Source: a bacterium (lineage in GTDB: Bacteria > Planctomycetota > JADGBV01). Taken from it: a stretch of DNA of 64,000 nt. The notes beneath the pieces are model-generated. The model saw nothing but the letters and a program-made list of their open reading frames with translations. It was not told the DNA's origin and did not search any database. The stretch is from assembly GCA_023261545.1 (NCBI GenBank), contig JAHFOS010000002.1, forward strand, positions 62,590 to 126,589. The letters run 5' to 3'. Positions 4,882 to 52,268 of this stretch are shown piece after piece. Every line of letters begins with the position of its first letter. The first letter of the stretch is position 1. Position numbers and translations under genes: made by a program.

Positions 4882-5637
4882 ATGCCCATCACGTTGACGG
4901 ACAAGGTGGCATGGATCACCGGCACCAGCCGCGGCATCGGCGCGGTACTGGCGCGCCGCTTCGCCGAGCGTGGAGCCCGGGTCGTGGCCACATGTCTGGG
5001 GGGGGCCAAGGACTCCGGGGGTCTGGACGAATTTTTCAGGGAAAATAGCCCGCGTTCAACCGTGCTTCACCAGGACGTGCGCCGGCCCGAGGATGGCGAG
5101 GCGGTGGCCGCCTGGATTCGCGATCACGCGGATCGGCTCGACGTGCTGGTCAACAACGCCGGCATTGACCCGCGCAAACCAGCGGATGAGATGAGCGTGG
5201 AGCACTGGCGCGAAGTGTTGAGCGTCAACCTGGACGGCTCGTTCTATTCCTGCCGGGCGGCCCTGCCGCTCATGAAGGAGCGGGGTTACGGCAAAATCAT
5301 CCAGGTGGGCTCCATCATGGCCTTTTTCGGCGGGGCCAAGGTCGCCCACTATGTCTCAAGTAAGATGGGCCTCATCGGGCTCACGCGCGGGCTGGCGCGC
5401 GACCTTGGCCGCTTCGGCATTCGCGTGAACTGCGTGGCGCCGGGCGCCATCTTCATGCCGCTGCCGCCGGAGGAACGACGTGGGGAAATTGAAAAGACCA
5501 TGAACGAGCGGCAGTGCCTGCCGGGCCTCATGGTGGCGGAGGATATCGAGCCCACCTACGCCTTCCTCGCCTCGGAGGACAGCGACGCCATCACCGGCCA
5601 GTGCATCACCGTGGACCGCGGATGGACGCACTATTGA
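4882..5637 (+). CDS. Short-chain dehydrogenase/reductase (SDR) family oxidoreductase
   Basis: N-terminal TGTSRGIGAVLARRFAERGARVV Rossmann glycine motif, NNAGI, catalytic YVSSK (YxxxK), PGAI. Confidence 0.85.
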   Translation: MPITLTDKVAWITGTSRGIGAVLARRFAERGARVVATCLGGAKDSGGLDEFFRENSPRSTVLHQDVRRPEDGEAVAAWIRDHADRLDVLVNNAGIDPRKPADEMSVEHWREVLSVNLDGSFYSCRAALPLMKERGYGKIIQVGSIMAFFGGAKVAHYVSSKMGLIGLTRGLARDLGRFGIRVNCVAPGAIFMPLPPEERRGEIEKTMNERQCLPGLMVAEDIEPTYAFLASEDSDAITGQCITVDRGWTHY

Positions 5638-5679
5638 TGGCCCGCCGCGAACCGCCAACTCCTGCCTGAAGGAAAGCCC

Positions 5680-6891
5680 ATGAAGATCACGCACATCGAA
5701 ACCCTGCGCGTCATGAAGTGGCCCCAGAACATCTGGGTGCAGATCCACACCGACACCGGCCTCGTCGGGCTCGGCGAAACCTTCTACAATGCTCCCGGCG
5801 TGCAGGGGTCGGTGCTGGAACACTTCGGCCCCATGCTCATCGGGCGCAACCCCTGCGAGGTGGAGCGGCATTGGGAAGCGATGTTCCGCGTGAGCGAGCA
5901 CGCGGGTTACGGCGGGGCCGAACTCCGGGCCATCTCGGCCCTGGACATGGCGCTCTGGGACCTCAAGGGCCAGGCGGCGGGTCTGCCGGTTTACGAAATG
6001 CTGGGCGGCGCGACGCGACGCCGCGTGCGCTTGTATGCCACCAGCCTCAGCCACCAGCAGCCCGCGGAGATCGCCAAGGGTCTCATGGATCAGGGCATCT
6101 TCGCCATCAAGGGCGATCCCTTCATCTCCTTCTGTCTTGAGAGCGATGGGCAGTTCATTTCCGCGGCTGATATCGAGCGCGGCCTCAGGCCCGTGCGCGC
6201 CATCCGCGACGCCGTGGGCGATGCCATGGAAATCGCCATTGACACGCACGGCAAATGGAACCTGCCGGTGGCCATGAAGCTGGCGCAGGCCATGGAGCCC
6301 TACAACATCCTATGGTTCGAAGATCCCATGCGCATGGTCTGCCCCGAAACGCTGAAACGGCTGCAGGAGGGGACGCGCATCCCGCTGTGCATTTCCGAGC
6401 GGCTGATGACGCGCTGGCAGTTCCGCCAGTACATCGAGAGCGGCGCCGCGCGCATCGTCATGCCGGACCTGATATGGACGGGAGGCATCTCCGAGACCCA
6501 CAAGATTGCCATCCTGGCCTCGGCCCACGAGGTGCCGGTGGCGCCCCACGACTGCACCGGGCCGGTCAACATGTTCGCCTGCGCCCAGATCTGCATGAGC
6601 GCGGCCAACGTCATGATCCAGGAGTATCTCCCGGTTTACCACCAGGGCTGGTACGCGGAGGTGGTGGACCCCAACCTGGACGTGCGCGACGGCTGGCTCT
6701 ACGCGCCGGAAAGGCCGGGCATCGGCACGCGCCTCAAGCCCGAGGTGCGCGGCCGTTCCGATACGGTCATCGCCGTTTGCAAGGAGGCACGAGAGAGTTA
6801 CATTGACCACTGGGTCGCGCCACCCGGCCTGCGCTCGCCGCGCATGGAGGCGGAAACACAAAAAATGCGCGAGGAAAGAGGACCGCGATGA
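5680..6891 (+). CDS. Enolase-superfamily dehydratase (mandelate racemase/muconate lactonizing enzyme family; galactonate/sugar-acid dehydratase-like)
   Basis: MKITHIETLRV...WVQIHTDTGLVGLGET N-terminal capping domain. TIM-barrel metal ligands AIDTHG...WFEDP...E. Start overlaps next gene by 4 nt (operon). Confidence 0.85.
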   Translation: MKITHIETLRVMKWPQNIWVQIHTDTGLVGLGETFYNAPGVQGSVLEHFGPMLIGRNPCEVERHWEAMFRVSEHAGYGGAELRAISALDMALWDLKGQAAGLPVYEMLGGATRRRVRLYATSLSHQQPAEIAKGLMDQGIFAIKGDPFISFCLESDGQFISAADIERGLRPVRAIRDAVGDAMEIAIDTHGKWNLPVAMKLAQAMEPYNILWFEDPMRMVCPETLKRLQEGTRIPLCISERLMTRWQFRQYIESGAARIVMPDLIWTGGISETHKIAILASAHEVPVAPHDCTGPVNMFACAQICMSAANVMIQEYLPVYHQGWYAEVVDPNLDVRDGWLYAPERPGIGTRLKPEVRGRSDTVIAVCKEARESYIDHWVAPPGLRSPRMEAETQKMREERGPR

Positions 6892-8150
6892 ATCCCATGG
6901 ATCTGCATATCACCAGAATAGAAACCGTCATTCCCACCGCCATCATGCCGGGCCTGGTGCTGGTGCGCGTGCACACCGATGCCGGCATCGTCGGCTGCGG
7001 GGAGAGCTACTACACCCCGCACGCGGTGGCGGCCATGATCCACGACTGGATGGCGCGGCGCCTCTTCGACCGCGCGGTGCCGTTCTCGGTGGAGGGCACC
7101 TGGCGCTTCCTCTACGAGCGCGCGGCCAACTTCGGCACCCAGGGCTGCGAACTGCGGGCGCTGTCGGCCATTGACCTGGCGTTATGGGACATCATGGGCC
7201 AGCTCACCGGCCAACCGATATGGGCGCTGCTGGGCGGGCCGGTGCGCGACCGCGTCCCGGTGTACAACAGCAGCGGCGGCCCGAGCTATGGCGCGCGCCG
7301 CGACGGCCACACCGATCCCCAGGGCTGGCCCGGTTACGGCGACGTCGGGGAAAAAGGACCGCTCAATGATTACTGGTCCATCGTGAACCAGCCGGTGGAA
7401 TACGCCGGCGAGCTCATCGCCTCGGGCACCAAGGCCCTCAAGACCTGGATCTTCGACTTCGCCGCCCACAAGCCGAATGGTGGCCTGCATATCAGCCACG
7501 CGGATATCGAGACGGGCCTGAAGCCGCTGCGCGCCATCCGCGAACGCTGGGGAAAATCCATCGAAATCATCCTCGACGGCCACGGCTTCTTCCAGTTGCC
7601 CGCCGCCCTGCGCATCGCCCGCGCCCTGCGCGAAATAGATCCCCTGTGGCTCGAAGACGTCATACGCCCGGACTGCATTGACACTATCAGCGACTTCCGC
7701 AACAAGGCCGGGGTTCCGGTGGCTGTGAGCGAGATGATGGTCGGCCACGAGGACTACCGCCTGGTGCTGGAGAAGCGCGCCGCCGACTACATCATGATCG
7801 ACCCCACCTGGGTGGGCGGCATCTCCCAGACGCGGCGCGTCGCCCAGATGGCCCAGGCCTACAACCTCCCCGTCACCATGCACGATTGCACGGGGCCGCT
7901 CACGCTGCTGGCCGGGGTGCAAATCGCCGCCGCGACCCCCAACGTGGCCTGGCAGGAGACGGTGCGCGCCCACCTGCAGTTCGTCTATCCGCGGCTCATT
8001 GACGAACGCCTGGCCATCGTGGAGGGACACATCGCCCTCCCGCGCCGGCCCGGGCTCGGAGCCGGCCTGCTCCCGGAGCTGTTCAGTCCCAAGCAGCCGG
8101 ACTACCGCGAAAGCCGGGCGCCGGCTCCCGGAGCCGCAAAAGCCGGCTAA
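6888..8150 (+). CDS. Second enolase-superfamily (MR/MLE) dehydratase, tandem paralog
   Basis: ITRIETVIP...LVLVRVHTDAGIVGCGES...ILDGHG...LWLEDV; ATGA overlap with upstream gene. Confidence 0.85.
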   Translation: MNPMDLHITRIETVIPTAIMPGLVLVRVHTDAGIVGCGESYYTPHAVAAMIHDWMARRLFDRAVPFSVEGTWRFLYERAANFGTQGCELRALSAIDLALWDIMGQLTGQPIWALLGGPVRDRVPVYNSSGGPSYGARRDGHTDPQGWPGYGDVGEKGPLNDYWSIVNQPVEYAGELIASGTKALKTWIFDFAAHKPNGGLHISHADIETGLKPLRAIRERWGKSIEIILDGHGFFQLPAALRIARALREIDPLWLEDVIRPDCIDTISDFRNKAGVPVAVSEMMVGHEDYRLVLEKRAADYIMIDPTWVGGISQTRRVAQMAQAYNLPVTMHDCTGPLTLLAGVQIAAATPNVAWQETVRAHLQFVYPRLIDERLAIVEGHIALPRRPGLGAGLLPELFSPKQPDYRESRAPAPGAAKAG

Positions 8151-8157
8151 GACGGCC

Positions 8158-9408
8158 TCAGCCCAGGAACCAGGGAGCGGGCAGGGCCAGGATGCCCTCG
8201 CCTAGATCCCGCACCTCGGGATCATTGCTGAGAACGAAAGCTCCCAGCACCGGCTTGTCCAAGATTTCACGCAACCGAAAGAGGTGCTTGGCGTCACCAG
8301 GACTGACGCGGTTCGCTTTCTTGATCTCGATGGGGACGAAACCGTTTTCCAGCTCCAGCAGCAGGTCCACCTCCAAGCCATCTGAGGTTCGCAAATGGTG
8401 GAACTGGATACGCAGGTCGAGGGACCGCGCTTGCTTGTAGATTTCTGCCACCACGGCGCCCTCGTACTCAAATCCAGTGAGGTCCCCACTCCTGCCCGCC
8501 ACGGCTTGCTGGACGCCTGGATCCAGCCAGTGCAGCTTGGGCGTTTTCACCAGCCTTTTGAGCCGGTTCCTGAACCAAGGCCGCAGGACGATGACCTGGT
8601 AGCTGATTTCAAGGTAACTCAGGAAACGCTTGGCGGTCTGCGGCGCGATGCCGGCCTCCCTGGCCAGCGTGCTGTGGTGGACTTGCTGCCCCACGAGCTC
8701 GGCCAGGCACCGCTGGGCCAGCACGAAGGGCTCCAGATCCCTAATCGCGACCAGATCGCGCAGGTCGCGCTGGAGGTAAGTCTGAACATATTGGTGAAGC
8801 CAGTCCCGTTTCTCTTTTTCCCCCAGATCCTCCGCCAGCACCTCCGGCAACGCGCCGAAACTCAGATAGCGCTCAAACAACAGTTGGGCCTGGGCATAGC
8901 CCTTGTCCCCCGCGGGAATTCCCAGGAACAGGGCCGTATCCTTGGGGCCGCCGGCGATCCAGCGTTGGAAGCGGGAAACCGGAATATCCTCGGACCAGGA
9001 AGCCGTCCGCATCTCCGGAATCGTGAGGGGAAATAGCTCGAAAAGGGCCGCCCTTCCCGCCATGCTTTCCCGGACTTGGCGCAACATCAGGATTTGGCTC
9101 GAACCCGTGAGGATAAAGCGCATGTCGGCGTGGGCATCGAAGGCCGCCTTCACCGACTCGAAGAGGGCGGGCGCCTTCTGCACCTCGTCGAGAATCACGT
9201 TCTGGAAACGCTCGCGCCACTGGACCGCCGACAAGCGGGTGTACTGGGGCCGCAGTATGGGATCATCCAAGGATATATAATCGTAGCCCTCCAGTTGCCG
9301 GACCAGGGTCGTCTTGCCGGTCTGGCGCGCCCCAGAGAGAACCACCAGTCGCCCATGTCGAGAGGCGATTTTTTCCTTCAATCGCCGCAGCAGTATCCGG
9401 TTCTTCAT
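8158..9408 (-). CDS. AAA_14 / DUF4143-family ATPase (paralog 1 of 3)
   Basis: Walker A LVVLSGARQTGKTTL, Walker B-like FILTGSS, then the long C-terminal DUF4143-like region. Same architecture as 25203-26468 and 47539-48825. Confidence 0.8.
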   Translation of the reverse strand: MKNRILLRRLKEKIASRHGRLVVLSGARQTGKTTLVRQLEGYDYISLDDPILRPQYTRLSAVQWRERFQNVILDEVQKAPALFESVKAAFDAHADMRFILTGSSQILMLRQVRESMAGRAALFELFPLTIPEMRTASWSEDIPVSRFQRWIAGGPKDTALFLGIPAGDKGYAQAQLLFERYLSFGALPEVLAEDLGEKEKRDWLHQYVQTYLQRDLRDLVAIRDLEPFVLAQRCLAELVGQQVHHSTLAREAGIAPQTAKRFLSYLEISYQVIVLRPWFRNRLKRLVKTPKLHWLDPGVQQAVAGRSGDLTGFEYEGAVVAEIYKQARSLDLRIQFHHLRTSDGLEVDLLLELENGFVPIEIKKANRVSPGDAKHLFRLREILDKPVLGAFVLSNDPEVRDLGEGILALPAPWFLG

Positions 9409-9546
9409 GGCAATTTAATGGCGTAAAAATGATATGTTATAGTTGTTAATATACGCCAAAAATTTAATATTAAAGATATTAAATACGCTTTATCACCAGG
9501 CCATCGTCCCCTGGGAAGGGACTCGCGCGCCGGAGGATCTGGGCAC

Positions 9547-10011
9547 TCAGCCCGGATCGCAGGCGAAGAAGGCGAGCAGGCGCGAGGATTCGAGAGCCGC
9601 TGATTGCAGCGGTAACTGCTTCAGGGCGCTCGCCAGACATACCAGCAGCAGCACGCCGCGCAGCAGCGAGAAACTCCCGGCCAACAGGATTGGCAGCGGC
9701 AACGTAGGCCCCCGGCCCTTGGCGCGCCAAGGCACGATGAGCAACAGTCCCACCGTGGCCAGCACCCCCGCCGTGAGGGCAAAGGCGGTCGTGCGACCGA
9801 GTTGCGCCGGCAGCCCTGACAACCCTTCACGCACGGCCAGGGCCGGAGCGAGCAGCGCGGCCAACGGGAAAACGCCGAGCCAGAGCAGCCAAAGGGAGAA
9901 TTCCAGGCGATCCCCCGCCCAGCAGCCCTTGAGGAAGAATAAAATCAGAACAAGGATCAGCAGGGTGTCAGCCACCGCGGGCTCAGCTCGCGCGCTGCTT
10001 CTTCTCCACAT
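9547..10011 (-). CDS. Hypothetical integral membrane protein (about 4 TM helices)
   Basis: Hydrophobic segments LLILVLILFFL, LWLLWLGVFPLAALLAPALA, FALTAGVLATVGLLLIVPW, LLAGSFSLLRGVLLLVCLA. Overlaps the upstream small gene by 29 nt. Last gene of the minus-strand operon. Confidence 0.35.
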   Translation of the reverse strand: MWRRSSARAEPAVADTLLILVLILFFLKGCWAGDRLEFSLWLLWLGVFPLAALLAPALAVREGLSGLPAQLGRTTAFALTAGVLATVGLLLIVPWRAKGRGPTLPLPILLAGSFSLLRGVLLLVCLASALKQLPLQSAALESSRLLAFFACDPG

Positions 10012-10348
10012 AGCGCACGAGCCAGTCCTTAAACTGGGTATCGCTCACGTTCTCGTTCAGGCTCTGCTCCAGGGCTTCCTGGCGCTCCGCCGGAGTGAGG
10101 TTGTTGTCCACCAGCATGGCGGCGCGGTTCATGCCCACGACACCGCGTTCGAGGTAATCAAAGGTCGGCCACTCCACGCCCTGGATAACCCTCCAGCGTT
10201 TTTTGACGTTGGCCAGGGGCTGGCTCGTGGCCCTGGCGATGGTCTCAAGGACCAGCGTCTCACTTTGGTGCGGGTTCATGCCTTTGATGTTGTCGTAGTG
10301 ATCGGCGATCTCCTCAAGGGCTTCCAGGGGATTTTTCTTGCTGGCCAT
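9983..10348 (-). CDS. Hypothetical small protein (121 aa)
   Basis: Complete ORF with plausible composition, immediately downstream of the 668-aa gene on the same strand. No recognisable motif. Confidence 0.4.
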   Translation of the reverse strand: MASKKNPLEALEEIADHYDNIKGMNPHQSETLVLETIARATSQPLANVKKRWRVIQGVEWPTFDYLERGVVGMNRAAMLVDNNLTPAERQEALEQSLNENVSDTQFKDWLVRYVEKKQRAS

Positions 10349-10620
10349 GCGAGCAGTCTAAGGGACAGCCGCCCTGGGCAACCGCCAGGGGCGAGGGGGA
10401 CGGAGGGCTGCTATAGATTCAAGGTTGCGCTGCAAACTGCCGGCTGGCGATTCGGCTACGTTTCTGATGGCCGGCCGCTGGACAAGGTGGAGTACAGAGA
10501 GTTTCTGGACCACAGGATTCGCGATGTCCGACGCGCACTCGCTATCGAGCGCGATCTGATCCTGGCGTATGACCGCATAGAAAAGCGCCGTTATCCGGAT
10601 TCGCAGGCCAGCCGTTCATT

Positions 10621-12627
10621 TCACAACGAGTTGCAGATCTTGACGATGCGCAGGAAGTGCAGGCGGTTCCAGGACTGGTTTTTGATGCGCGGGCGGTTCA
10701 ACAGGTCCGTGATGAGAGCGCGATCCTGAAGGCCGTCCAGGATGGAGCAGTTCTTCCCCAGCGCCACCAGTTCCTCCTTGATCATCAGCTCGAACCTGGC
10801 CAGATCCGACTGCGCCTTGCGCACCTCGCGGTAGATTTGCGTGAAGTCATCCAGCAGCCTCTCCAGCTCGGCGCCGACGGAGGTGTTCAGGACGAGCGGC
10901 TGGTTCCTGAGCATCCCCGAGACGCGGTTCAGATCCCCGCCGATTTTTGATTTGTCGAGACGCAGGTACTCCTGGTACTCCGCGTCGCCCTGCCGCGAAA
11001 TTTCATTGTCCCTTTGCAGCAGTTTGCAGGAGACGAAACAGACGTAGCGGAGCAATTCCAACAGCTCCTGCGGCAGGAATTGCACGCCCGACTCTCCGGA
11101 CGGAAGCTGGTGGGACTCACGGATGGAAGATCGCAGCCTGTCCAACTTCAACAGGACGAGCTCGGCCACATGGCAGGACTTGATGTACACCAGCCATTTC
11201 TTCAGGGTCCCCAGAGGCGTGCCGGACGCGATGGCTCCGGGCTGGCTGATGAGGGATTGTTCGATGTTCGAAAGGGTCCTGTCGTAGAGAGTTTGCAGGG
11301 AAAAGGGGTTGATTTTCCGGTTCCTGCCAATCTGGGCCAGCAGCTCCACGAGTTCCCCGAGGCTCTTGCCCTTGATGCTGACGAGCCCTTCGATATTCAG
11401 GTCCGCGTCCATAGTCAGCGTTTTTTCCTGCCCCAGGTCGTAGCTCACGTTTTGCAGGAGGTTGGCGAAGACGGGAAAAATATCGAGCTGTTGGCGGGTG
11501 CGGCGCTCTTTGGAGCATTGCTCGAAGGATTGGGGAATGGTCCTGGCGAACAGGAGCGTGGTCAGAACCCCCGAGAAATCCTTTTTGATGTCGCCATCGC
11601 CCTTGAGGTAGGGCAGTTCCATCAATTGGTTCAACTGGCCGAGCTGCTCGTCCAGCGTGTCCTGGAGTTTTTGCAGGTTGTTGCGCAGGGCGGGCATGGA
11701 GTCCGCGGGAACGTTCTCCGCGTATTTGGCCCTGATCTTGCAGACCAGCAAACGACTCAGGGGAGGCTCAAGGTTCGTCAGCTCGCGGCGGATCAGCTCG
11801 CGCGAAGATCGGACATAGGCCCGCGCGTTCTCCTTCTGGTCGCGCATGTCGGATCGCGCGGAAACCATGGAGGAATCGTTCATGAGGTCCGCCAAGCGCT
11901 TTAAAATATCGTTCTGTCGCAGATCCCAGGTCTGGACCAGCTCGCTTTCCGCCGCTTTGTGGCTGCGGATGGCGCTGATCTCCGCATGCCGCTCCCCGAG
12001 CGCCGCATGGGTTTCATTGATGAGATAGATATCCTCCAGGCGGCGGTGGATCAGCAGGAAAATCTGGATGGCGAAGCGCGCCTCGCCCTTGCCGGCGAAG
12101 ATGTTCTGCAGGGCCTCCTGATCGGCCGCCGCGGTCAGCACCAGCCCCTTGTCGGAGAGCCGCAGACCGGAAATCCTGCCTTCGATGTCATTGGCGCAGG
12201 CGGCTTTCGCCGATTCCAGGTCCGCCATCCCCGAGGTGTCAATAAAGTGTTGCAGCGTCTTGAAGAACTCCTCCTGGTCGGGTTTCGAGAAGTTCTTGCG
12301 TTCCACGATCTGTTTGATGAGCCGCTCGGGGAAGGAATACCCGGCCATGTGCTCGAAATACGCGCGCAGCCGGCTCAGGTTGTAGAGCTTGGGGTTGCTG
12401 CTCTGAAAGGGCATCAGCCTGGAGAAGGGGAATATCTCCTCCAGCTCAACGCCCGTTGATTTCTCAATGCCGCCGCTCACCCTGCCTGTTTTAACCCGCC
12501 AGCTCGCCGCGCCAGCCAGATCGACCACGCCGAGCCACGCGCGGGGGCACTCTGGGAGCAGGAAACGCTGCCCGAGAGTGGCGCCTGTGCTACGGCTGGC
12601 TCTCTGGGAGGTGCGGGCCCAGCGCAA
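10621..12627 (-). CDS. Large hypothetical alpha-helical protein (up to 668 aa). The start is uncertain: the TTG at 12627 may be an over-extension, and ATG at 12414 is an alternative
   Basis: Long uninterrupted ORF with coding-like composition and no P-loop or other known motif. First gene of a three-gene minus-strand operon. Confidence 0.55.
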   Translation of the reverse strand: MRWARTSQRASRSTGATLGQRFLLPECPRAWLGVVDLAGAASWRVKTGRVSGGIEKSTGVELEEIFPFSRLMPFQSSNPKLYNLSRLRAYFEHMAGYSFPERLIKQIVERKNFSKPDQEEFFKTLQHFIDTSGMADLESAKAACANDIEGRISGLRLSDKGLVLTAAADQEALQNIFAGKGEARFAIQIFLLIHRRLEDIYLINETHAALGERHAEISAIRSHKAAESELVQTWDLRQNDILKRLADLMNDSSMVSARSDMRDQKENARAYVRSSRELIRRELTNLEPPLSRLLVCKIRAKYAENVPADSMPALRNNLQKLQDTLDEQLGQLNQLMELPYLKGDGDIKKDFSGVLTTLLFARTIPQSFEQCSKERRTRQQLDIFPVFANLLQNVSYDLGQEKTLTMDADLNIEGLVSIKGKSLGELVELLAQIGRNRKINPFSLQTLYDRTLSNIEQSLISQPGAIASGTPLGTLKKWLVYIKSCHVAELVLLKLDRLRSSIRESHQLPSGESGVQFLPQELLELLRYVCFVSCKLLQRDNEISRQGDAEYQEYLRLDKSKIGGDLNRVSGMLRNQPLVLNTSVGAELERLLDDFTQIYREVRKAQSDLARFELMIKEELVALGKNCSILDGLQDRALITDLLNRPRIKNQSWNRLHFLRIVKICNSL

Positions 12628-12635
12628 AAAAAACT

Positions 12636-12664
12636 TGACTCGGTGGCCCCCTTCGCATATAATG
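12636..12664 (+). promoter_or_regulatory. Near-perfect sigma70-type promoter: TTGACT, 17-bp spacer, TATAAT
   Basis: Sequence aaaaaaaacTTGACTcggtggcccccttcgcaTATAATgctaaatcgg. It is followed by an AAGGGA Shine-Dalgarno about 7 nt before the ATG at 12691. Confidence 0.45.
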
Positions 12665-12690
12665 CTAAATCGGTTTAATTAAGGGATATT

Positions 12691-12918
12691 ATGGAAAGCA
12701 AGCGAAACCCAGGCGCCGCCGCGGGAGATCGGCGCTTCGAGCCCCCCGGCCCCATCGCCGGCGCGGGTCGGGCCGGGGAAGCGGCCAAGAGTCCGGCCCT
12801 GGATCGCTGGCGCACGTCGCTGTTTCTAGGTGACGCGCGTCCCCCCTGGATCTCCGAGTCCCGCCGCGGCCCCCAGGCCCTGAAGCGCCTGCTCCAGCGG
12901 CGCGGGATGGTGGATTAG
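12691..12918 (+). CDS. Possible small leader ORF (75 aa, G/A/P/R-rich). Could instead be 5' UTR of the downstream gene
   Basis: Good SD and consensus promoter upstream, but the product is low-complexity. Confidence 0.25.
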   Translation: MESKRNPGAAAGDRRFEPPGPIAGAGRAGEAAKSPALDRWRTSLFLGDARPPWISESRRGPQALKRLLQRRGMVD

Positions 12919-15515
12919 TGAAACGCGCTGGCCTGCTGCTGGCGCTGCTGGTCCGGGGTGCCCTAGAGCTCAGCGCCGCCTCCACCCCTGTTCTGCCCCC
13001 CGAGGAGACGCCCGCCATCCCGCCTTCCGCGGGAGTGGCCCTTGCGGCGACCTCCTTGGTTGTGAGTTCTGGAAACCTCGAGCTGCATTTGGCCAGAAAC
13101 GCCGGAGGTGTTCAAGTGACGAGCCTCCGGGATACGGCCACGGGCACCGAGTTGCAGGCGGGTTCGCTGCGTCTTCCCCTTTTCACCCTGGTCTTGGGGA
13201 ACAACTCCCAGCTCAACGCCGATAGCGGCTGGGGCAAGGTGGAGCTGGCCGCCATTCCAGGCGGAACCTCCTTGCGCTGGAGCGGGGCGGGCGCGGTGCC
13301 GGGCTTGGCAGTGGTGGCCAATCTGCTGCCGGATTCCGGAAACAGCGCCTTGGAGTGGGCGCTGAGCGTGGAGAACACTTCCTTGCTGCCCGTGAGCCGC
13401 GCCATCTTTCCGCAGTTCGCCGTCGCCGATCTCGGAAGCAGTGGCCGCGTTTTCCTGCCGCGCGGGCCGGGGGAAGAGGTGCTTGGCGCCTGGAGCAGCG
13501 CCTTCACCTACAGCGAACTCTATCCCAATGGCTGGAGCGCCAGCCTGCAAGTCCTTGCCGCCTATAACGGCGCCACCGGCCTGTATTTCGCCATGCACGA
13601 TGCGAGTGGCGCAACCAAGCACATTGGCGCCTACGGCTTGCCCGCCTTCAAGGCCGTGAAGTTCGTCTTCGAGCATTTGCCTCCCGGCAGCGCCTCTTCC
13701 GGCAGCTCTTTCACCCTCCAGGGCCGCGGCGTGTGGCGCCTGCTGCGGGGCGATTGGTTCGATGCCGCCCTGGTCCACCGCGAGTGGGCGAGCTTGCAGC
13801 CCGCCATGCTGCCCCCCGATAGAGCGGCGGGAAGCAGCGCGACGCCGCTGTGGATGCGCGAGCTTGGCGTCTGGACCCAGGCCGCCGGCACCGACGCGGC
13901 CACCATCGCCTCCGTCCAGGCCTTTGCCAGATACATGGGCGTGCCCACGGGCTTCCACTGGTACACCTGGCACGCTATTCCTTTCGATAACGATTATCCC
14001 CACTATTTCCCGCCACGCGCCGGCTTCGCCGCGGGGGTGAAAGCCCTCCAGGCCACGGAGCCCAGGATCCGCGTCATGCCCTACATCAACGGCCGGCTGT
14101 GGGATACCCGGGACCAGGGCACTTCTGACTTCGAGTACACGGCGCTGGCGAAACCCGCGACCACCAAGGACGCCGCCCTCGCGCCCAACACCGAGAGCTA
14201 CGGCAGCCTGGAGGCGGATGGCTCTCCGGTGAAACTAGCCGTCATGTGTCCGGCCACCTCCCTGTGGCAAAGCCGGCTGCGCACCATCACCCTGGAGCTT
14301 TTCAAATCCTACGGGGTGGACGGCGTGTATCTGGACCAGATCGCCGCCGCCGCTCCTAAGCTCTGCTACGACGGCGGCCACCCGCACCCCCCGGGCGGAG
14401 GGCGCTGGTGGGTGGACGGTTATCGCAATTTGTTGGCCGGAATCCGCAATGAGATGCCGGCGGATCGCATGCTCACCAGCGAGTCGGCGGTGGATACCTT
14501 CAACGCGGGCTTCGATGGCTACCTGGTGTGGAACTGGCAGCGCAACAATATGGTGCCCGCCTTCAGGGCGATCTATGGCGGAGCCGTCCAGCTTTTCGGA
14601 CGAAACTATAGCGGTGGCCTGCCCCGCGACCTGTCGGTGTGCCAGCGCGCCGGGCAACAGCTCGTCTTCGGCGAGCAACTGGGATGGGCTTTTCCTGGGA
14701 TCATCTACGAAAATTCCGCTCCCTTCCTGCGCGACTGTGCCCGGCTCCGCAACCGCCTGGCGCCCTACTTTTACGCCGGGCGCATGGAACGCCCGCCGCG
14801 TTTCACCGGCGCCAATCCGCCGTGCACCTCCGACTGGCAATGGCAGGGCGCGGCGACGCCGGTGACCACGCCCTCGCTGCTCACGGGCGCTTTCACGCGG
14901 CCTGAAGTCCAAAGCACGATCCTCGTTTTCGCCAATATCTCCGAGACCACCCAGTCGGGCAGCGTGAGCTTTGACGGCGCAACTTATGACCTCAGCGGCA
15001 ACGCGGTTCACCTGCGGGTGGTGCGACCGCAGGCCACGGACACTGCCGTGGCGCAATCGCTCGCTTTCCAGAAAGCTCTGGTATTGCCAGCGCGTTCCGT
15101 CCAAGCCTGGGAAATCGTCGTGGCCCCGGTCGAAGCCGGCGCGGGTGGCGGAACTATTCCCGTTCCAGCCGATGCCGTGCCTTCGGGAAACACCTCCAAT
15201 GGCGCCGGGGTACCCGCGCCCACCCCGGATGTCGGCGCGGCGCCGGCCAACCAAGCGCCCGTGGTGAATGCTGGACTTGATCTGACGGTGACGTTGCCGA
15301 GTGGCGCAAGCCTGAACGGTTCCGCCACGAATGACGGCCTGCCCGCGGGAAACGCGCTGCTTTACAACTGGAACAAGGTTTCAGGCTCCGGGACCGTGAC
15401 CTTTGCCGCTGCGACGGCCTCAGCAACCACGGCGACTTTTCGACTTCAGGAACCTACGTTCTGCGCCTCACGGCCCACGACGGCCTGCTTTCCGGCAGCG
15501 ACGACACGCTGGTGA
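12918..15515 (+). CDS. Secreted glycoside-hydrolase-like protein (DUF6259-like TIM-barrel region) with a C-terminal PKD/K319L-like Ig domain. The reading frame is broken at a T-run at 15437-15440
   Basis: GTG start with signal peptide MKRAGLLLALLVRGALELSAAS. Region FHWYTWHAIPFDNDYPHYFP...VDGVYLDQIAAAAP. C-terminal VVNAGLDLTVTLPSGASLNGSATNDGLP...YNWNKVSGSGTVTFAAATASATTATF is a typical PKD-like repeat that stops abruptly. Confidence 0.65.
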   Translation: MKRAGLLLALLVRGALELSAASTPVLPPEETPAIPPSAGVALAATSLVVSSGNLELHLARNAGGVQVTSLRDTATGTELQAGSLRLPLFTLVLGNNSQLNADSGWGKVELAAIPGGTSLRWSGAGAVPGLAVVANLLPDSGNSALEWALSVENTSLLPVSRAIFPQFAVADLGSSGRVFLPRGPGEEVLGAWSSAFTYSELYPNGWSASLQVLAAYNGATGLYFAMHDASGATKHIGAYGLPAFKAVKFVFEHLPPGSASSGSSFTLQGRGVWRLLRGDWFDAALVHREWASLQPAMLPPDRAAGSSATPLWMRELGVWTQAAGTDAATIASVQAFARYMGVPTGFHWYTWHAIPFDNDYPHYFPPRAGFAAGVKALQATEPRIRVMPYINGRLWDTRDQGTSDFEYTALAKPATTKDAALAPNTESYGSLEADGSPVKLAVMCPATSLWQSRLRTITLELFKSYGVDGVYLDQIAAAAPKLCYDGGHPHPPGGGRWWVDGYRNLLAGIRNEMPADRMLTSESAVDTFNAGFDGYLVWNWQRNNMVPAFRAIYGGAVQLFGRNYSGGLPRDLSVCQRAGQQLVFGEQLGWAFPGIIYENSAPFLRDCARLRNRLAPYFYAGRMERPPRFTGANPPCTSDWQWQGAATPVTTPSLLTGAFTRPEVQSTILVFANISETTQSGSVSFDGATYDLSGNAVHLRVVRPQATDTAVAQSLAFQKALVLPARSVQAWEIVVAPVEAGAGGGTIPVPADAVPSGNTSNGAGVPAPTPDVGAAPANQAPVVNAGLDLTVTLPSGASLNGSATNDGLPAGNALLYNWNKVSGSGTVTFAAATASATTATFRLQEPTFCASRPTTACFPAATTRW

Positions 15516-16120
15516 CGGTGAACCCGGACCCCGACGGTGATCGCGACGGCCTGCCGGATATTTGGGAGCAGGCGCATGGCTTGAACCCCCTGACCGCGGA
15601 GGACGCGACCCAAGACGCTGACAACGACGGCCTGAGCAATCTGGCGGAATACCAGCGCGGGACGGCCATGGACAAGGCTGATACGGATGGCGACGGCCTG
15701 CCGGACGGTTGGGAAGTGGCCCGCGGTTTGAACCCCAGCGCGGCCAGCGATGCGGCCCAGGACGCGGACGCCGACGGCCTCACCAATCTCCAGGAGTACA
15801 CGCTGCACGCGGATCCCCACAACCGCGATTCGGACAGCGACGGTTTGCCGGATGGTTTCGAGGTGGCGCACGGGCTGAGTCCGACGCAGAGCAACGCCAG
15901 CGCGGACACGGACAACGACGGCGTGAGCGACGTGCAGGAGTACCTTCTGGGTCGCGACCCCGCCACCGCTGAGCCGCCGGAAAGCTCCGTGTCCAGTGGG
16001 CCCACCACAACCACCGGGACTTCACCCCTCGTAGCGAGCACGCCGGCGGAGGTCCTGGCAACGGCGGCGAAGATCCAAGCCCCCAGCAGCGCTGGCGGCG
16101 GATGTCTTTTCAGCTTTTAG
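15512..16120 (+). CDS. Frameshifted C-terminal continuation of the 12918 gene: end of the PKD-like domain followed by thrombospondin type-3-like calcium-binding repeats
   Basis: Frame +2 from 15441 reads STSGTYVLRLTAHDGLLSGSDDTLVTVNPDPDGDRDGLPD, the canonical end of a PKD-like domain. Repeated DxDxDGLxDxxE motifs follow (DADNDGLSNLAEY, DTDGDGLPDGWE, DADADGLTNLQEY, DSDSDGLPDGFE, DTDNDGVSDVQEY). Confidence 0.55.
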   Translation: MTVNPDPDGDRDGLPDIWEQAHGLNPLTAEDATQDADNDGLSNLAEYQRGTAMDKADTDGDGLPDGWEVARGLNPSAASDAAQDADADGLTNLQEYTLHADPHNRDSDSDGLPDGFEVAHGLSPTQSNASADTDNDGVSDVQEYLLGRDPATAEPPESSVSSGPTTTTGTSPLVASTPAEVLATAAKIQAPSSAGGGCLFSF

Positions 16121-16144
16121 CGGGAGGCCCGGCCAGCAACGGCG

Positions 16145-16723
16145 TCACCCCTCCTCCTGGGACTGCCCCTTGAACTGGCTCTCCTTGGAGGCGAAAAGCA
16201 GGTTGAAAGAAGTCAGGCTGCCGTAGCAGCGCGAGATGTAGCCGTCGAGTTCCAGCTTCTCCTCGGGGGAAAGGGAGGGGTGGTTGTTGATCTTCTGCTC
16301 CAGGACGCGCAACTTCTCGCGGACGGTGATGAGTTTTTTGAAGAAAACCTCAAGGGGCAGTTCGCGGGGTTGGGTCTCCTCGCGTCCGGGAACCAGCTTC
16401 AAGCTGCCGCCGACCCAGCGCTTGCCCATCTCCAATTCGCTTTCGATAAACCCCCAATCATCCATGGATTCACGCACCGCCTGGCGGATGCGGTCGAGCT
16501 CGGGATCTCCGGCAGCATGGAGCGGCTTCATGGCCTCGAAGCTGAAGGCCACCACCGTGGCCTCGCCGCCTTTGAAGAGCACGCGATAACCCTCGCTGGT
16601 GTAGCCCACGATACGCCCCGTGCCCTTGAAGGGATGCTGGACCAGGATGCCCAGTCCCAGCTTTGGCCGCTGCGGTGTTGCTTCGCTCATGAGGTCAGTC
16701 TGACTTGTGGAGAAAAGGATCAA
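16145..16723 (-). CDS. Hypothetical protein (192 aa) with a small N-terminal beta-barrel-like motif (DUF3553/CarD-like G..V.H..FG.G.V pattern)
   Basis: LGILVQHPFKGTGRIVGYTSEGYRVLFKGGEATVVAF; complete ORF with coding-like composition. Confidence 0.5.
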   Translation of the reverse strand: MILFSTSQTDLMSEATPQRPKLGLGILVQHPFKGTGRIVGYTSEGYRVLFKGGEATVVAFSFEAMKPLHAAGDPELDRIRQAVRESMDDWGFIESELEMGKRWVGGSLKLVPGREETQPRELPLEVFFKKLITVREKLRVLEQKINNHPSLSPEEKLELDGYISRCYGSLTSFNLLFASKESQFKGQSQEEG

Positions 16724-16781
16724 TGGAGACAGACTTGAAGGGGAGTTGCGTGGGGTTTACAGGCGCGGTCAGGTTATTTAA

Positions 16782-17036
16782 GGCTCATCCGACTAATGCG
16801 TACTTTTCTGGAGTTTTTAACACGGGTGCACGGTCGAGCAAGGCTAGAACCAAAGCGAGCTGCCGGGGGATTTTCCACAGATTGCACAGATTAACACTGA
16901 TAATAATCAATCCGGGCCATCCTTTCTAATCGGTGCAAATCTGTGTAATCTGTGGATGCTCCCGAGTTGAGAACGCAGAGAGCCGAGAACAAATGAGGGG
17001 GAACCCTGCCAGAGGTACGCATTAGTCGGAGGCGCC
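16782..17036. mobile_element. MITE-like non-autonomous element, copy 1 (~255 bp). It has ~22-bp terminal inverted repeats and an 8-bp target-site duplication TTATTTAA
   Basis: Left end GGCTCATCCGACTAATGCGTAC, right end GTACGCATTAGTCGGAGGCGCC. Flanking direct repeats TTATTTAA at 16774-16781 and 17037-17044. Internal inverted pair CCACAGATTGCACAGATTAACAC / GTGCAAATCTGTGTAATCTGTGG. A second copy lies at 62931-63181. Confidence 0.6.
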
Positions 17037-17087
17037 TTATTTAAAGCGCCAACTGTGCAGGCAAGGTAAGACATGGCATGCACATGG

Positions 17088-17501
17088 CTAAATTTTTCCA
17101 ACATTGGCTTTTCCCACAAAACTCTCCAGCGTCATAATCTCTACCTCCGGCGCGTATTCGATATGATTCCGGAGTCCTCCGCTCGTGTAGAATTCCCGAA
17201 GACGCCACCCCTCGCCGCCCAACACCAAATAGGCCTTCTCGAACTCGCCGCTTCGCACCGCCTCCAAAAGGCAGATGATTTCGAATGGCACCTTCTGTTC
17301 CGCTGTTCCCCCTACCTGCTGCCATTTGAGAGACAGCAGCATTTTTCGGCTGTTCTTTGCGATTACGGCGTCCACCTTATGCAGACCACCACCCGGCCTT
17401 CTGCCGATATTGACCTGCTTTTCCCACACATATCCGCCGTGATTCAGGGCGGGCAGCACCATCGCTTCGAGAATCCCTCCGGTGCTGGTGTTTCGCCCCA
17501 T
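17088..17501 (-). CDS. Putative small restriction-endonuclease-like protein (PD-(D/E)xK-like fold) coupled to the Dam-family methyltransferase
   Basis: Translationally coupled (1-nt overlap) directly downstream of the methyltransferase. Motif pattern: helix with Glu (GGILEAMV), then HKVDAVIAK, then LLSLKWQ (S-x-K in place of E-x-K). Locally lower GC. Confidence 0.45.
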   Translation of the reverse strand: MGRNTSTGGILEAMVLPALNHGGYVWEKQVNIGRRPGGGLHKVDAVIAKNSRKMLLSLKWQQVGGTAEQKVPFEIICLLEAVRSGEFEKAYLVLGGEGWRLREFYTSGGLRNHIEYAPEVEIMTLESFVGKANVGKI

Positions 17502-18382
17502 CAGAGATTACGCAGTGCTAGTATCTCGCGTACTGGTGTGCGATCCCCGGTGCAACTGATGCGCCGGGGAGCCTTGAGGAATGCCAGCTTGTAGCCGAGG
17601 TTCTCATAGAGGCTCACTATGCGATCCGTGGCCTGATTGGAGAGAACCACAGGGCCCGGATGACGACACAGCCAATTGGCTAGGCGTTCTTGGTCCGCCC
17701 ATGTGAAGTCCTCTTTGGCGTAACGTGTAAACTCAACATCGTAGGGCGGGTCAGCGTAAACAAAGTCATCAGGGAGAAGCGACACCTTCTCAAAATCTTC
17801 GCAGAGAAATGTCCATCGCCGTGTCACCGTGCGAAAGCTCGTGAAGTCCCGGGCGTAGTTGATGGTGGCATAGCGGCCGAAGGGGACGTTAAATTTTCCA
17901 CTGCTGTTGAAACGGCAGAGGCCGTTGAATCCCGTGCGGTTCAGGTAATAGAACAGGGCTGCCGCCTCGCCGCTCTTGCGGCCACCATTGGAAATCAAGG
18001 CATTGAAACTTCGGCGATTCTGTTCGTAGACGTCTCGGTCATTCATCATGCACACATCAGCAAGTGCGCCGCGCTTCAAAGCCCGATAGAAGTTAATGAG
18101 GTGGGGGTTAATGTCATTGAGAAGAGCTCGGGAAGGTCCAAATCCCAATGTGACCGCCAGCCCCCCGCAAAAAGGCTCCACGAGACGACGGCTGCGGTAC
18201 GGTACCCAGAGGGGTAGCAAGTGTGGCACCAACCATCGCTTACCCCCCGCCCATTTGAGAGGTGGTGTCGAGGCGCACTTCCGCGCGCTTTTCCCAAACA
18301 TTGTCGCCGGTGCCGCCATCTTATTCATCACCCGGTCCATCTTACCCCCTCCCCAAAGCCGCAAATGTCCGATTTCGTCCAC
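17501..18382 (-). CDS. Dam-family N6-adenine DNA methyltransferase
   Basis: PLKWAGGKRWL (motif I region of the Dam family) and catalytic DPPY (YADPPYD). The true start is probably an internal Met (MNKM or MFGK). Confidence 0.85.
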   Translation of the reverse strand: MDEIGHLRLWGGGKMDRVMNKMAAPATMFGKSARKCASTPPLKWAGGKRWLVPHLLPLWVPYRSRRLVEPFCGGLAVTLGFGPSRALLNDINPHLINFYRALKRGALADVCMMNDRDVYEQNRRSFNALISNGGRKSGEAAALFYYLNRTGFNGLCRFNSSGKFNVPFGRYATINYARDFTSFRTVTRRWTFLCEDFEKVSLLPDDFVYADPPYDVEFTRYAKEDFTWADQERLANWLCRHPGPVVLSNQATDRIVSLYENLGYKLAFLKAPRRISCTGDRTPVREILALRNL

Positions 18383-18719
18383 ATTCTATTCACTCCCCCT
18401 GGCGCGGCTTCCTGCTGGCCCACACCCTCTGTCTCGCCTACCTCGCCATCTTCCTGCGCTTGCGGCGCATCCCCCTGTCCCACGAGCGCGCGGCGCTGGC
18501 CTGCACGCTGATCTTCGGCCTGCCGGCGCTGCTTGTTTTCCTTTCCCCGCCGCTTTTCAAGAAGCGCGCCGCCTGCAGCGCCTGCCGCCAGCGTATTCCC
18601 GTCACCTTGCCCACCTGCCCCTGCTGCGGGGCGCCGACGTCGTGAGGCGATAGGTCTGCCGTGCGTCCCAGAGGGAGATGGCGGCGTATCCAGCTCGCTA
18701 TATCGGATAGCATGTTACA

Positions 18720-19010
18720 ATGATCAAGAGTATCGCGGGCCGGATCACACAGGATATCTACGATGGCACGGATAGCCGAAACGCGCGCAAGGTTCCCGTC
18801 GAGCTGCACGGCAAGAGCCGTCGGCTCCTGGATCAGATCAACGCGGCCGCGCGCATTGAAAATATGCGCGTTCCCCCCGGCAACAGGCTCCAGGCCCTTG
18901 CCGGCGATCGCAAGGGTTTTTGGAGCATTCGCGTCAATGATCAATGGAGGGTCGTGTTTCGCTGGATCGACAACGACGCTTATGATGTGGAAATCACGGA
19001 TTACCATTAA
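18720..19010 (+). CDS. higB: HigB-like toxin (RelE/ParE superfamily, plasmid maintenance system killer)
   Basis: MIKSIAGRITQDIYDG...PPGNRLQALAGDRKGFWSIRVNDQWRVVFRWIDNDAYDVEITDYH matches the HigB signature (GNRLE.L.GDR.G.WSIRIN.QWRI.F.W....A..V.I.DYH). Confidence 0.8.
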   Translation: MIKSIAGRITQDIYDGTDSRNARKVPVELHGKSRRLLDQINAAARIENMRVPPGNRLQALAGDRKGFWSIRVNDQWRVVFRWIDNDAYDVEITDYH

Positions 19011-19019
19011 GGAACGCTG

Positions 19020-19316
19020 ATGTTGCCAAGAAACCGACCGCCCACCCATCCCGGAGAGATGCTTTTCAAAGAGTTCATTGAACCGAGCGATATCACGCAG
19101 AGTGCTTTTGCCAGGCACCTGGGCTGGTCTTTCGCCAGACTCAATGAGATCGTGCGCGGCAAGCGCGGCGTCACCGCAGACTCGGCTCTATCTTTCGGTG
19201 AGGCGTTGGGCACGGGACCAGAATTCTGGCTCAATCTGCAAAGGAATTGGGATTTGTGGCATTCGCAGCGGAAACATAGGCCGGTCGGACCCCTTAAATC
19301 GTTGGTGAGGCGCTGA
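19020..19316 (+). CDS. higA: HigA antitoxin (XRE-family helix-turn-helix)
   Basis: HPGEMLFKEFIEPSDITQSAFARHLGWSFARLNEIVRGKRGVTADSALSFGEALGTGPEFWLNLQRNWDL is the canonical HigA HTH. Located 10 nt downstream of higB. Confidence 0.8.
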   Translation: MLPRNRPPTHPGEMLFKEFIEPSDITQSAFARHLGWSFARLNEIVRGKRGVTADSALSFGEALGTGPEFWLNLQRNWDLWHSQRKHRPVGPLKSLVRR

Positions 19317-19464
19317 AAGGTCAGGGCGATACCAGAGCGTAGGTGGCCGACATGAGGCACCTTGCGATTTTTTGTGCCGTTCGCAGATCGCGCCCCTGAG
19401 CATGCTGATTCCGTCAAGTCCGATGATAGTTGCCGCCCCGCTCCGCGCTGGATGATCGCCGCCC

Positions 19465-20487
19465 ATGTCCGCCGGCAGCTACGATGAAGGCGTGAGGGCG
19501 CTCCGCGAGGTGACGGGGGTGGTCGTCCCCACCTACTTGCCGGAGAACCCCGAGCGCGCCTTGCAGGTCCGGCTTCTGGAAGAGACGGTGCGCGCTTTCC
19601 TGCGCGAGCTGGGGGATCCCAGCCACCTGGTCTTGAGCGCCGACGGGGAAGACTGTGGCGCCGACGTGGTGCGCGAGCTGGCGCGCCACTGCGGCTGCAG
19701 CGCCGTCGTTCACGGCCGCAATCTCGGCAAGCTGCACGCCGTGCGTTTGGGCGCGCGGCTGTTGCTTGAAAGCAGCGCTGTTCAGTACGTCGCCGTTGCC
19801 GATAACGACGGCGATCACTTTGCCAACGAACTCCTGAACCTGGTGCGTTGCGCCCAGCACGCGAGCCGGGAAGGCGCGGAAGCGCTGGTCATCGGCGGTC
19901 GCTTGTCGCGCCACCGGCCCATGGGCTTTTTGCGCGGGGAGCAGGAGGAACTAGCCTGCCGCGTGCTGCTCGACGCGCTGCGCTACGACGCGGCCCTCAC
20001 GGGCCGGCCGCTGCGGCTTGATCATGTTCTGGCCGTGGAGGATTTCCCCGACTTCCACTCCGGCTATAAGCTTTTTACGCGCGCCGCGGCCACGGCCGCT
20101 TTCCTGCGCGAGCCGGTGCTGGCCGGGACCAGCGAGACCTGCTACTACCGCCACGCCTGCGAAGCGGCCATGGTGGTCGAGGCGCTGCAGGGCGGGGCCG
20201 TACTGGCCTCGGTCCTGCGCTCCACCTTCAACGAGCAGCCAGTCTCCACTTTCGGACGGCTGGACCGCAGCGCGCTCGCCGCCGACATGATTTCTTGGCC
20301 GCTGCTGCGACTCAAGGTTCCCGCGTCTTTCGCGCGCGTGTGGCTCGACAATCACATCAGCCGCCTGCAGCTCGGGACGCTGGCGCCGCTAGGGCGCGGG
20401 GAGCTTTTCGCCATCCGCCGTCAGGTGCTGGCCGCTTATGGCGAGGACACCAAAGAAGGCCCGCTTCCTGGGCCGCTGTTCGTCTAG
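19465..20487 (+). CDS. Hypothetical protein, possibly a GT-A fold (family-2-like) glycosyltransferase
   Basis: N-terminus VVVPTYLPENPE resembles the GT2 IVIPAYNEE motif. ADNDGDHFANELLNLV resembles the GT2 DxD region. Weak evidence. Confidence 0.4.
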   Translation: MSAGSYDEGVRALREVTGVVVPTYLPENPERALQVRLLEETVRAFLRELGDPSHLVLSADGEDCGADVVRELARHCGCSAVVHGRNLGKLHAVRLGARLLLESSAVQYVAVADNDGDHFANELLNLVRCAQHASREGAEALVIGGRLSRHRPMGFLRGEQEELACRVLLDALRYDAALTGRPLRLDHVLAVEDFPDFHSGYKLFTRAAATAAFLREPVLAGTSETCYYRHACEAAMVVEALQGGAVLASVLRSTFNEQPVSTFGRLDRSALAADMISWPLLRLKVPASFARVWLDNHISRLQLGTLAPLGRGELFAIRRQVLAAYGEDTKEGPLPGPLFV

Positions 20488-20488
20488 C

Positions 20489-21700: not shown

Positions 21701-21825
21701 TTTCATAATAGTTCCGCTCTGTCGAAGATTTTCCAGCCGTTCGCCCTTCATCCCCAGCTTTGGGGGATGAGTTTTTCGAATGGCCACGAAGCGGGCCACT
21801 AGGGGTGGATAGCGGTGGTGCCGAG

Positions 21826-21866
21826 ATCCGTTCATGCTTCGACAAGCTCAGCACGAACGGATCTGA
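21826..21866. terminator. Perfect hairpin (9-bp stem, 21-nt loop) between convergent moeA and moaD. The sequence is related to the REP-like repeat family
   Basis: GATCCGTTCATGCTTCGACAAGCTCAGCACGAACGGATC; the loop sequence CTTCGACAAGCTCAG is shared with the elements at 33826, 34892 and 47215. Confidence 0.4.
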
Positions 21867-21917
21867 TTGCCATTCACTTCAAACGAAAACCCATTCCTCG
21901 GGCTGAATTGTGTAGGC

Positions 21918-22157
21918 CTATCCCCCCGCCACAGGCGGGATGAAAACCAGGCGGTCGCCATCCAGCAGTTTGCGATCCCAGGGAGCGAATTCGTCGTTGA
22001 TGGCGAGTTTCAAGTTTTCGCGGCTCAGCTTGAGATGATGCCGCGTGCGTAGCATGTCATAGAGCGCCACGGCGTCGCCGTCCGCGAGTTCGATCTCTTC
22101 CTCACCGAGCCCGCGCTGCTCGCGCAGCGCGGCGTAGTACTCAATACGCACGCGCAT
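21918..22157 (-). CDS. moaD: Molybdopterin synthase sulfur-carrier subunit MoaD (ThiS/MoaD fold, C-terminal GG)
   Basis: 79-aa product MRVRIEYYAALREQRG...DGDRLVFIPPVAGG ending in Gly-Gly. The start overlaps the nnr stop (TGATG). Confidence 0.7.
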   Translation of the reverse strand: MRVRIEYYAALREQRGLGEEEIELADGDAVALYDMLRTRHHLKLSRENLKLAINDEFAPWDRKLLDGDRLVFIPPVAGG

Positions 22158-45732: not shown

Positions 45733-45748
45733 GGGTGGGGGGGTGGCA

Positions 45749-52216: not shown

Positions 52217-52268
52217 GTTTGGGCACCTCGATACAGCCCTGAATGAGTGTAGAGATCGTGCGTGGTTG

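Follow-up and report, generated by a model that had tools for sequence, protein, structure and literature searches.

The inner-membrane protein CvpA is conserved and its function is largely unknown; it has been tied to the secretion of colicin V, to deoxycholate resistance, and to the sigma-E envelope response (bioRxiv 10.1101/2020.09.25.314492; PMC6705877). A probable divergent relative of CvpA is encoded at one end of a block of three genes (9547–12627) in the stretch of DNA analyzed here, a window of 64,000 nucleotides (nt) from a bacterium of the Planctomycetota (assembly GCA_023261545.1, contig JAHFOS010000002.1, positions 62,590–126,589 of the forward strand). At the other end of the block stands the gene of a large helical protein, which we designate X and whose nearest described counterparts are hypothetical proteins such as MBF0197691.1; between the two lies a gene for a protein of 121 amino acids (aa). 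A third described element adjoins the block, as the neighboring ATPase gene matches PDC-S01, a PADLOC candidate that consists of a single gene and is without components resembling X, the 121-aa protein, or the CvpA-like protein. A reading of the DNA made from its letters (here the sequence-only reading) had proposed that the three genes form an operon with a layout that recurs in phage-defense and toxin-immunity islands. We find that the trio is not a conserved unit and believe, with somewhat more confidence than doubt, that it consists of two unrelated units adjacent by chance: X as a scaffold or adaptor, and a pair formed by the small protein and the CvpA-like protein.

An exhaustive HMMER search of 1.84 billion representatives recovered 11 relatives of X, all of them full-length, with E-values from 2.6e-54 to 1e-4 and identities of 18–28%; the members of the family are 580–623 aa long. 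The best match is P0003 (E = 2.6e-54), with residues 69–668 of the query aligned. In the alignment of these 12 sequences (A1; X and its 11 relatives), the only invariant columns are the P, K, N, Q, and S of a C-terminal motif, P-x-[IV]-K-N-Q-S-x-N, which X carries as PRIKNQSWNR at the junction before its last helix, according to the secondary structure of an AlphaFold2 (AF2) model. X both aligns over its full length with the other members and has this C-terminal motif, the two marks of the family, and judged by its sequence it is a new and the most divergent member of a family known in databases only as "hypothetical protein." The family is very rare: It comprises about a dozen 50%-identity clusters in the 1.84 billion, with no Pfam model and no relative of solved structure. 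A word-indexed search of 5.8 billion clusters with X or with the A1 profile returned the query itself only, and pattern-based scans of 185,579 GTDB species representatives found, within their limits, no relative; these scans used X and a second alignment (A2), the full alignment A1 being too divergent for search patterns. Nor was the family found in IMG/VR, among the INPHARED phages, or among the PLSDB plasmids, and a literature search on the assembly accessions of the relatives found nothing.

The proteins of the MBF0197691.1 type resemble X in their length class, in their full-length alignment, and in the invariant C-terminal motif, but their identity to X is low (merely 18–28%) and their gene neighborhood is different. 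X has the 121-aa/CvpA-like pair on one side and a divergent DUF6259 gene on the other, whereas its relatives lie beside ilvC/PTH2, ADK/LeuRS/RecD2, or GidB. MBF0197691.1 and MBF0196739.1, both from the Planctomycetota metagenome-assembled genome (MAG) GCA_015231345.1, are the family's only taxonomic anchor. As P0008 and P0011 are both found in this MAG, one genome can carry two X paralogs. Between family members that are 73% identical, the proportion of nonsynonymous differences (pN) is ~0.18 and that of synonymous differences (pS) ~0.84 (pN/pS ~0.21), indicating purifying selection on the family. It should also be noted that P0014, which belongs to the cluster of P0003 and is closest to X (28% identity), comes from the same ENA sample (ERZ27296333) as the contig of the window strain, the contigs being 3650 and 6426 base pairs long; P0014 may be a paralog in the window's own genome or in a co-occurring one. 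Uncultured bacteria commonly have undescribed families like that of X, and this one makes no long-standing question testable; it does represent a clean target for cataloguing lineage-specific "dark" proteins in Planctomycetota-type genomes.

To interrogate the conservation of the trio, gene tables or DNA were recovered for 10 loci of X relatives, and the small partners were also searched for by tblastn. At none of these loci, that of the closest relative's cluster included, was there a Colicin_V gene or a protein resembling the 121-aa or the 154-aa (CvpA-like) protein. The X–121–CvpA trio is not a conserved unit; the sequence-only reading had proposed a check of co-occurrence across genomes and had itself named lack of conservation as speaking against it, and the trio was absent from 10 of 10 loci. 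Elsewhere, X is a stand-alone gene that is vertically inherited among housekeeping genes and syntenic within lineages. Five loci (P0010, two metagenome loci that are 73% identical, P0013, and P0009) share the order ilvC(−), PTH2(−), X(+), radical SAM(−), PTPS, tRNA-synt_2, with a receiver/HATPase_c_2 gene (+) between X and the radical SAM gene in four of the five. Within this synteny X diverges faster than its surroundings, with 40% identity at L005 compared with 56–78% for the neighbors. In P0004 and P0006, an ADK-domain gene is located directly upstream of X and RecD2 or LeuRS downstream; P0008 has LeuRS downstream and the same divergent gene (297/302 aa) upstream. P0012 comes after a peptidase M3 gene and P0011 after a PQQ beta-propeller gene, and the cluster of P0003 and P0014, closest to the X of the window, has a convergent GidB gene downstream. 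Separately, we observed at four of the five syntenic loci (L003, L005, L010, and L011) a protein of ~300 aa with a receiver and an RsbW-like HATPase_c_2 domain, encoded on the same strand downstream of X, and a histidine kinase upstream; X may be linked to signaling in the ilvC–PTH2–X lineage.

The length of X had been read as 668 aa, corresponding to the open reading frame (ORF) from the annotated TTG at 12627. This ORF is likely over-extended, as three features indicate. The GC content at second codon positions (GC2) is 0.69 over codons 1–49, which resembles noncoding DNA, compared with 0.41 over codons 50–71 and 0.33 over codons 72–140; every homolog aligns only from residue 66–74 of the ORF onward; and residues 60–71 (ELEEIFPFSRLM) match the N-termini of homologs, for example, MLELPFSRFKAF in P0007. 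The best start would be the GTG at 12480, giving a protein of 619 aa, with the ATG at 12414 (597 aa) as a further possibility besides the annotated one.

X is basic (isoelectric point, pI, 8.5–8.9), and no hydrophobic segment was found in it. The AF2 model, computed with the 12-sequence alignment as input, has a predicted local distance difference test score (pLDDT) of 84.4 and a predicted template modeling score (pTM) of 0.75, and consists almost wholly of long antiparallel helices with one small hairpin, so that the all-helical, soluble protein of the sequence-only reading is borne out. Its lack of recognizable domains is likewise upheld: X has no match in Pfam, NCBIfam, PADLOC, or PHROG, no sequence match in the PDB, and no informative PDB fold match. 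The fold matches obtained are generic helical bundles and interaction modules, none extending over more than 167 of 597 residues. Modules of this kind (spectrin-like three-helix bundles; BAG, GAT, and MIT/Vta1 domains; CATCHR-type rods such as Sec10 and Exo70) are the sole structural matches to the model, whose long antiparallel helices resemble protein–protein interaction scaffolds. The Walker A motif GxxxxGK[ST] is absent from X, in agreement with the earlier reading, and there is no AAA or P-loop match in Pfam; the family has one conserved glycine-rich stretch, G-x-G-x-x-S-F, without the lysine. The remote homology search and structure prediction that had been suggested for this protein have yielded 11 uncharacterized relatives and a confident helical model with generic fold matches only. 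One candidate identity, the DHR-2 domain of DOCK proteins, was rejected: DHR-2_Lobe_C is matched by one member of the family (E = 0.0028), the other 11 have no match, and there is no support from the fold.

We interpret X as a putative stand-alone, vertically inherited, lineage-restricted, non-enzymatic cytoplasmic scaffold or adaptor. Such a role is preferred to that of an enzyme because length and fold are preserved, conservation is weak, a single motif is invariant, and the only structural resemblance is to interaction modules; the family alignment shows no distributed set of invariant residues as would be expected of an enzyme. The family would then be a fast-evolving one in which the fold is the main constraint, and the KNQS motif before the last helix would be a docking site for a conserved partner. 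The same K-N-Q-S residues would be an active or binding site if X instead had a housekeeping role, whether enzymatic or in association with nucleic acids or the ribosome, linked to translation or nucleotide metabolism. The recurrent neighbors of X relatives (LeuRS, PTH2, MiaB/RimO-like radical SAM, EpmA-like tRNA-synt_2, GidB, and the ADK-domain protein) fit with this, as do the basic character of the protein, the occurrence of an invariant polar motif within an otherwise weakly conserved protein, and the purifying selection acting on the family. However, no single neighbor is kept across both subgroups and such genes are common everywhere, the model resembles neither an enzyme nor an RNA-binding domain in its fold, and one short C-terminal motif is a thin basis for a catalytic site; we therefore regard a housekeeping factor of this kind as unlikely.

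Besides X as scaffold or adaptor, the preferred reading holds a second unit, in which the 121-aa protein would be tightly coupled to a divergent four-segment inner-membrane protein of the CvpA family. The 154-aa protein has four hydrophobic segments (residues 7–36, 36–61, 74–97, and 104–133) and matches PF02674 (Colicin_V/CvpA) with E = 3.4e-6 over profile positions 2–140 of 144. Its size of 142–154 aa, the four transmembrane (TM) segments, and the match to nearly the whole profile fit the CvpA family (about 140–165 aa, about 4 TM), and the precomputed label of the protein on ENA contigs is "Colicin_V (weak)"; from its sequence, it is a probable divergent member of the family. The four-TM membrane protein of the sequence-only reading is retained, but a family is recognizable for it, Colicin_V/CvpA. 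The 29-nt overlap reported between the last two genes holds for the ATG at 10011 (154 aa) only; the product given by NCBI has 142 aa, equivalent to a GTG start at 9975, and leaves a 7-nt spacer after the 121-aa gene. The shorter form fits the Pfam alignment better, as profile position 2 aligns at residue 15. Under either start, the two genes are tightly coupled. The CvpA family differs in this respect, since the protein of the window is coupled to an orphan gene, and also in that the purF-type housekeeping context of cvpA in Escherichia coli is not seen in the window. No close relatives of the CvpA-like protein were found in JGI metagenomes or among the PLSDB plasmids.

For the 121-aa protein, no homolog was found in the word-indexed search, in PHROGs, among the INPHARED phages, or among the PLSDB plasmids; its AF2 model is helical, of moderate confidence, and gave no informative fold match. 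Two possible origins were rejected. A BLASTP match to the linker region of the AAA_14/DUF4143 ATPase, suggesting a fragment of that gene, scores 24.3 bits, which is reached by 1 of 200 shuffles, and an hhalign comparison with the three ATPase paralogs gave a probability of 0.9% in a different region, in line with chance; a relationship to X received an hhalign probability of 0.1%. The 121-aa protein would be a lineage-specific cytoplasmic partner of the CvpA-like protein, and by analogy with the reports on CvpA the pair probably acts at the inner membrane, in envelope or membrane homeostasis.

All three genes are genuine. They were found, as in the sequence-only reading, as co-directional ORFs of the minus strand at 10621–12627 (668 aa, TTG start), 9983–10348, and 9547–10011, and have the coding statistics of the genome: The GC content at third codon positions (GC3) is 0.78–0.82 and GC2 0.36–0.52 across the three ORFs, the codon-position pattern of genuine genes in this ~62% GC genome. 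The same genes are present on ENA metagenome contigs from two samples, one contig from each, and the retrievable DNA (one contig) is 100% identical to the window. That one or more ORFs are spurious, with the 121-aa orphan noncoding or arisen de novo, might be suspected from the many long antisense ORFs of a ~62% GC genome (such as a 428-aa ORF on the plus strand at 9443–10729), from the absence of any homolog of the 121-aa protein, and from its moderate AF2 model. This is most improbable given that X and the 121-aa ORF each have GC3 of 0.82 and GC2 of 0.36, that the synonymous codon usage of both is among the most genome-typical of the window, with the 121-aa ORF the most typical one tested, that X has full-length homologs and a confident structure model, and that the membrane ORF matches a near-whole CvpA profile.

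Table 1.—Coordinates of the three genes, their subfeatures, and the adjoining elements in the window.
Feature	Position	Strand	Remarks
Gene X	10621..12480	-	Length most likely 619 aa (GTG 12480); predicted soluble and all-alpha
121-aa protein gene	9983..10348	-	Acidic (pI 5.7), soluble, helical; species-level orphan
CvpA-like (Colicin_V family) 4-TM inner-membrane protein gene (probable)	9547..10011	-	154 aa, or 142 aa
Codons 1–49 of the 668-aa ORF, probably a 5' leader and not part of X	12481..12627	-	
Motif PRIKNQSWNR of X	10663..10692	-	Coordinates verified
Gap between X and the 121-aa gene, 272 nt	10349..10620	.	
AT-rich intergenic DNA separating the CvpA-like gene from the AAA_14+DUF4143 gene	9409..9546	.	
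AAA_14+DUF4143 ATPase, neighbor outside the unit	8158..9408	-	Pfam + PADLOC PDC-S01
Near-consensus sigma-70-like promoter	12635..12663	+	TTGACT-17-TATAAT, 11/12 positions

A gap of 272 nt parts X from the 121-aa/CvpA-like pair, so that a single operon for all three genes is not established, and X and the pair would be transcribed separately. The gap and the leader have no Rfam match to a structured RNA or riboswitch, and the fold of the gap is unexceptional (z = 0.37). On the plus strand of this region (10421–10620) we noted a very weak similarity to DUF4276, confined to its last 40 residues (E = 0.012); it weakens to E = 0.11 when a longer ORF is used, and the match cannot be extended. Either the decayed relic of a gene or chance could account for it. 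With regard to the strong promoter region of the sequence-only reading, the AT-rich stretch is real, but the sigma-70-like match lies on the plus strand, pointing away from the trio to the divergent DUF6259 gene (12918–15515). The AT-rich stretch on the other side, between the CvpA-like gene and the ATPase gene, is probably the promoter region of the latter, judging from its composition.

The flanking AAA_14/DUF4143 ATPase of the sequence-only reading is present, with Pfam E-values of 1.5e-25 and 8.5e-31 for its two domains and E = 1.2e-82 for PADLOC PDC-S01. Two further AAA_14+DUF4143 genes are encoded at 25203–26468(−) and 47539–48825(−), the three copies being mutually 25–34% identical, and the family is evidently expanded in this genome. 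With three copies in 64 kilobases (kb) and an AT-rich upstream region of its own, the adjacency of this gene to the trio carries little weight. A literature search on DUF4143/AAA_14 returned unrelated papers only.

Against PADLOC-DB 2.0, taken as the set of defense models, X and the 154-aa protein match no family, and the 121-aa protein has only a chance-level match to PtuA (E = 0.014, 12.5 bits). No phage or plasmid homologs were found for X and the 121-aa protein in INPHARED and PLSDB, for the 154-aa protein in PLSDB, for X in IMG/VR, or for any of the three in PHROGs. The genes tested across 4882–23719 contain no Pfam or NCBIfam toxin, Rhs, PAAR, VgrG, CdiA, or LXG domain, the sole toxin-type trace being a type VI secretion system (T6SS) immunity lipoprotein model at 12.8 bits, with a cut-off of 43. 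In the trio itself, neither a secretion marker nor a domain of a toxin, nuclease, protease, or NTPase was found; the window contains no tRNA, and repeats or inverted repeats bordering the block are chance-level matches only. A role in phage defense or toxin immunity is unsupported.

The three genes might still be conceived as one lineage-specific module, with X as sensor or scaffold, the 121-aa protein as a small adaptor, and the membrane protein as effector of a new anti-phage or toxin-immunity system, which might cooperate with the adjacent PDC-S01-like ATPase. The co-directional arrangement with no terminator found in the gap speaks for this, as do the match of the neighbor to a PADLOC candidate, a restriction–modification (R-M)-like cluster 4 kb off, and AT-rich stretches on both sides of the block. 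The combination of a 121-aa orphan with an extremely rare X is moreover what fast-evolving conflict genes typically show; X changes at a higher rate than its neighbors, and the very divergent X of the window could be a neofunctionalized paralog. These points are opposed by the absence of the trio from all 10 loci of the relatives, which are housekeeping and syntenic, by the lack of any match to a PADLOC system, PHROG, phage, plasmid, or IMG/VR entry in the sets searched for each protein, and by the lack of the toxin, nuclease, protease, and NTPase domains looked for. X and the 121-aa gene have native codon usage, which the nearby R-M genes do not; AAA_14/DUF4143 occurs three times in the window, so that its adjacency is uninformative; and the membrane protein resembles a housekeeping family. 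We consider a defense or immunity module distinctly unlikely. As its defense- or toxin-immunity-like layout is not a conserved unit, the trio is not to be carried forward as a candidate system, and no new kind of system is demonstrated.

Several points weigh against the preferred reading of a scaffold or adaptor X lying by chance beside a CvpA-like pair. The family is tiny, its gene context was recovered at only 10 loci, and the closest relative is only 28% identical to X; what is known of its taxonomic range comes from two named proteins, both of one MAG. The case for a scaffold leans mainly on what is absent (a catalytic motif, a fold match), and the invariant KNQS residues might equally well form a catalytic site or bind nucleic acids. 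The PF02674 score of the membrane protein, 27.5 bits, is 1.8 bits under the Pfam gathering cut-off of 29.3. No minus-strand terminator or promoter is predicted in the 272-nt gap, which would leave room for co-transcription of all three genes. X may also be a diverged paralog that has acquired a locus-specific role. Were such a diverged X recruited beside the 121-aa and CvpA-like proteins, the three would make up a new module associated with the membrane, serving envelope maintenance or defense of a new kind, in which a rod-like X with a KNQS docking motif couples a cytoplasmic signal to the membrane protein; we hold this for highly unlikely.

Further features of the window lie outside the block. 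Downstream of the plus-strand promoter and divergent from X, 12918–16120(+) holds two genes. The first encodes a protein of 865 aa that has DUF6259 and a K319L-like PKD domain, and its 3' end overlaps by 4 nt the start of the second, which encodes a 202-aa protein with bacterial TSP3 repeats. The R-M-like cluster at 16145–19118(−) has atypical codon usage, unlike that of X and the 121-aa gene. It contains an unknown 192-aa gene, an unknown 226-aa gene, and a PDDEXK_11 nuclease gene (17088–17501) that at its 3' end adjoins the start of a gene for a D12/Dam-type N6-adenine methyltransferase (17501–18382; PADLOC oMTase/MTase_II). At 42461–45819(−), a WYL+WCX regulator (42461–43531) adjoins proteins of 541 aa (43643–45268) and 184 aa (45265–45819) without Pfam matches. 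At 51101–54473(−), a low-GC gene (0.45) with atypical codon usage and a weak PDDEXK_4 nuclease domain (51101–52216) lies directly downstream of the gene for a 734-aa protein with two AAA-type P-loop regions (52269–54473), and the two could be an acquired nuclease–ATPase pair. A 273-aa ORF at 45956–46777(+) has no Pfam match; its GC content is 0.37, compared with 62% for the genome, and no gene of the window has a more atypical codon usage, so that it is probably recently acquired DNA.

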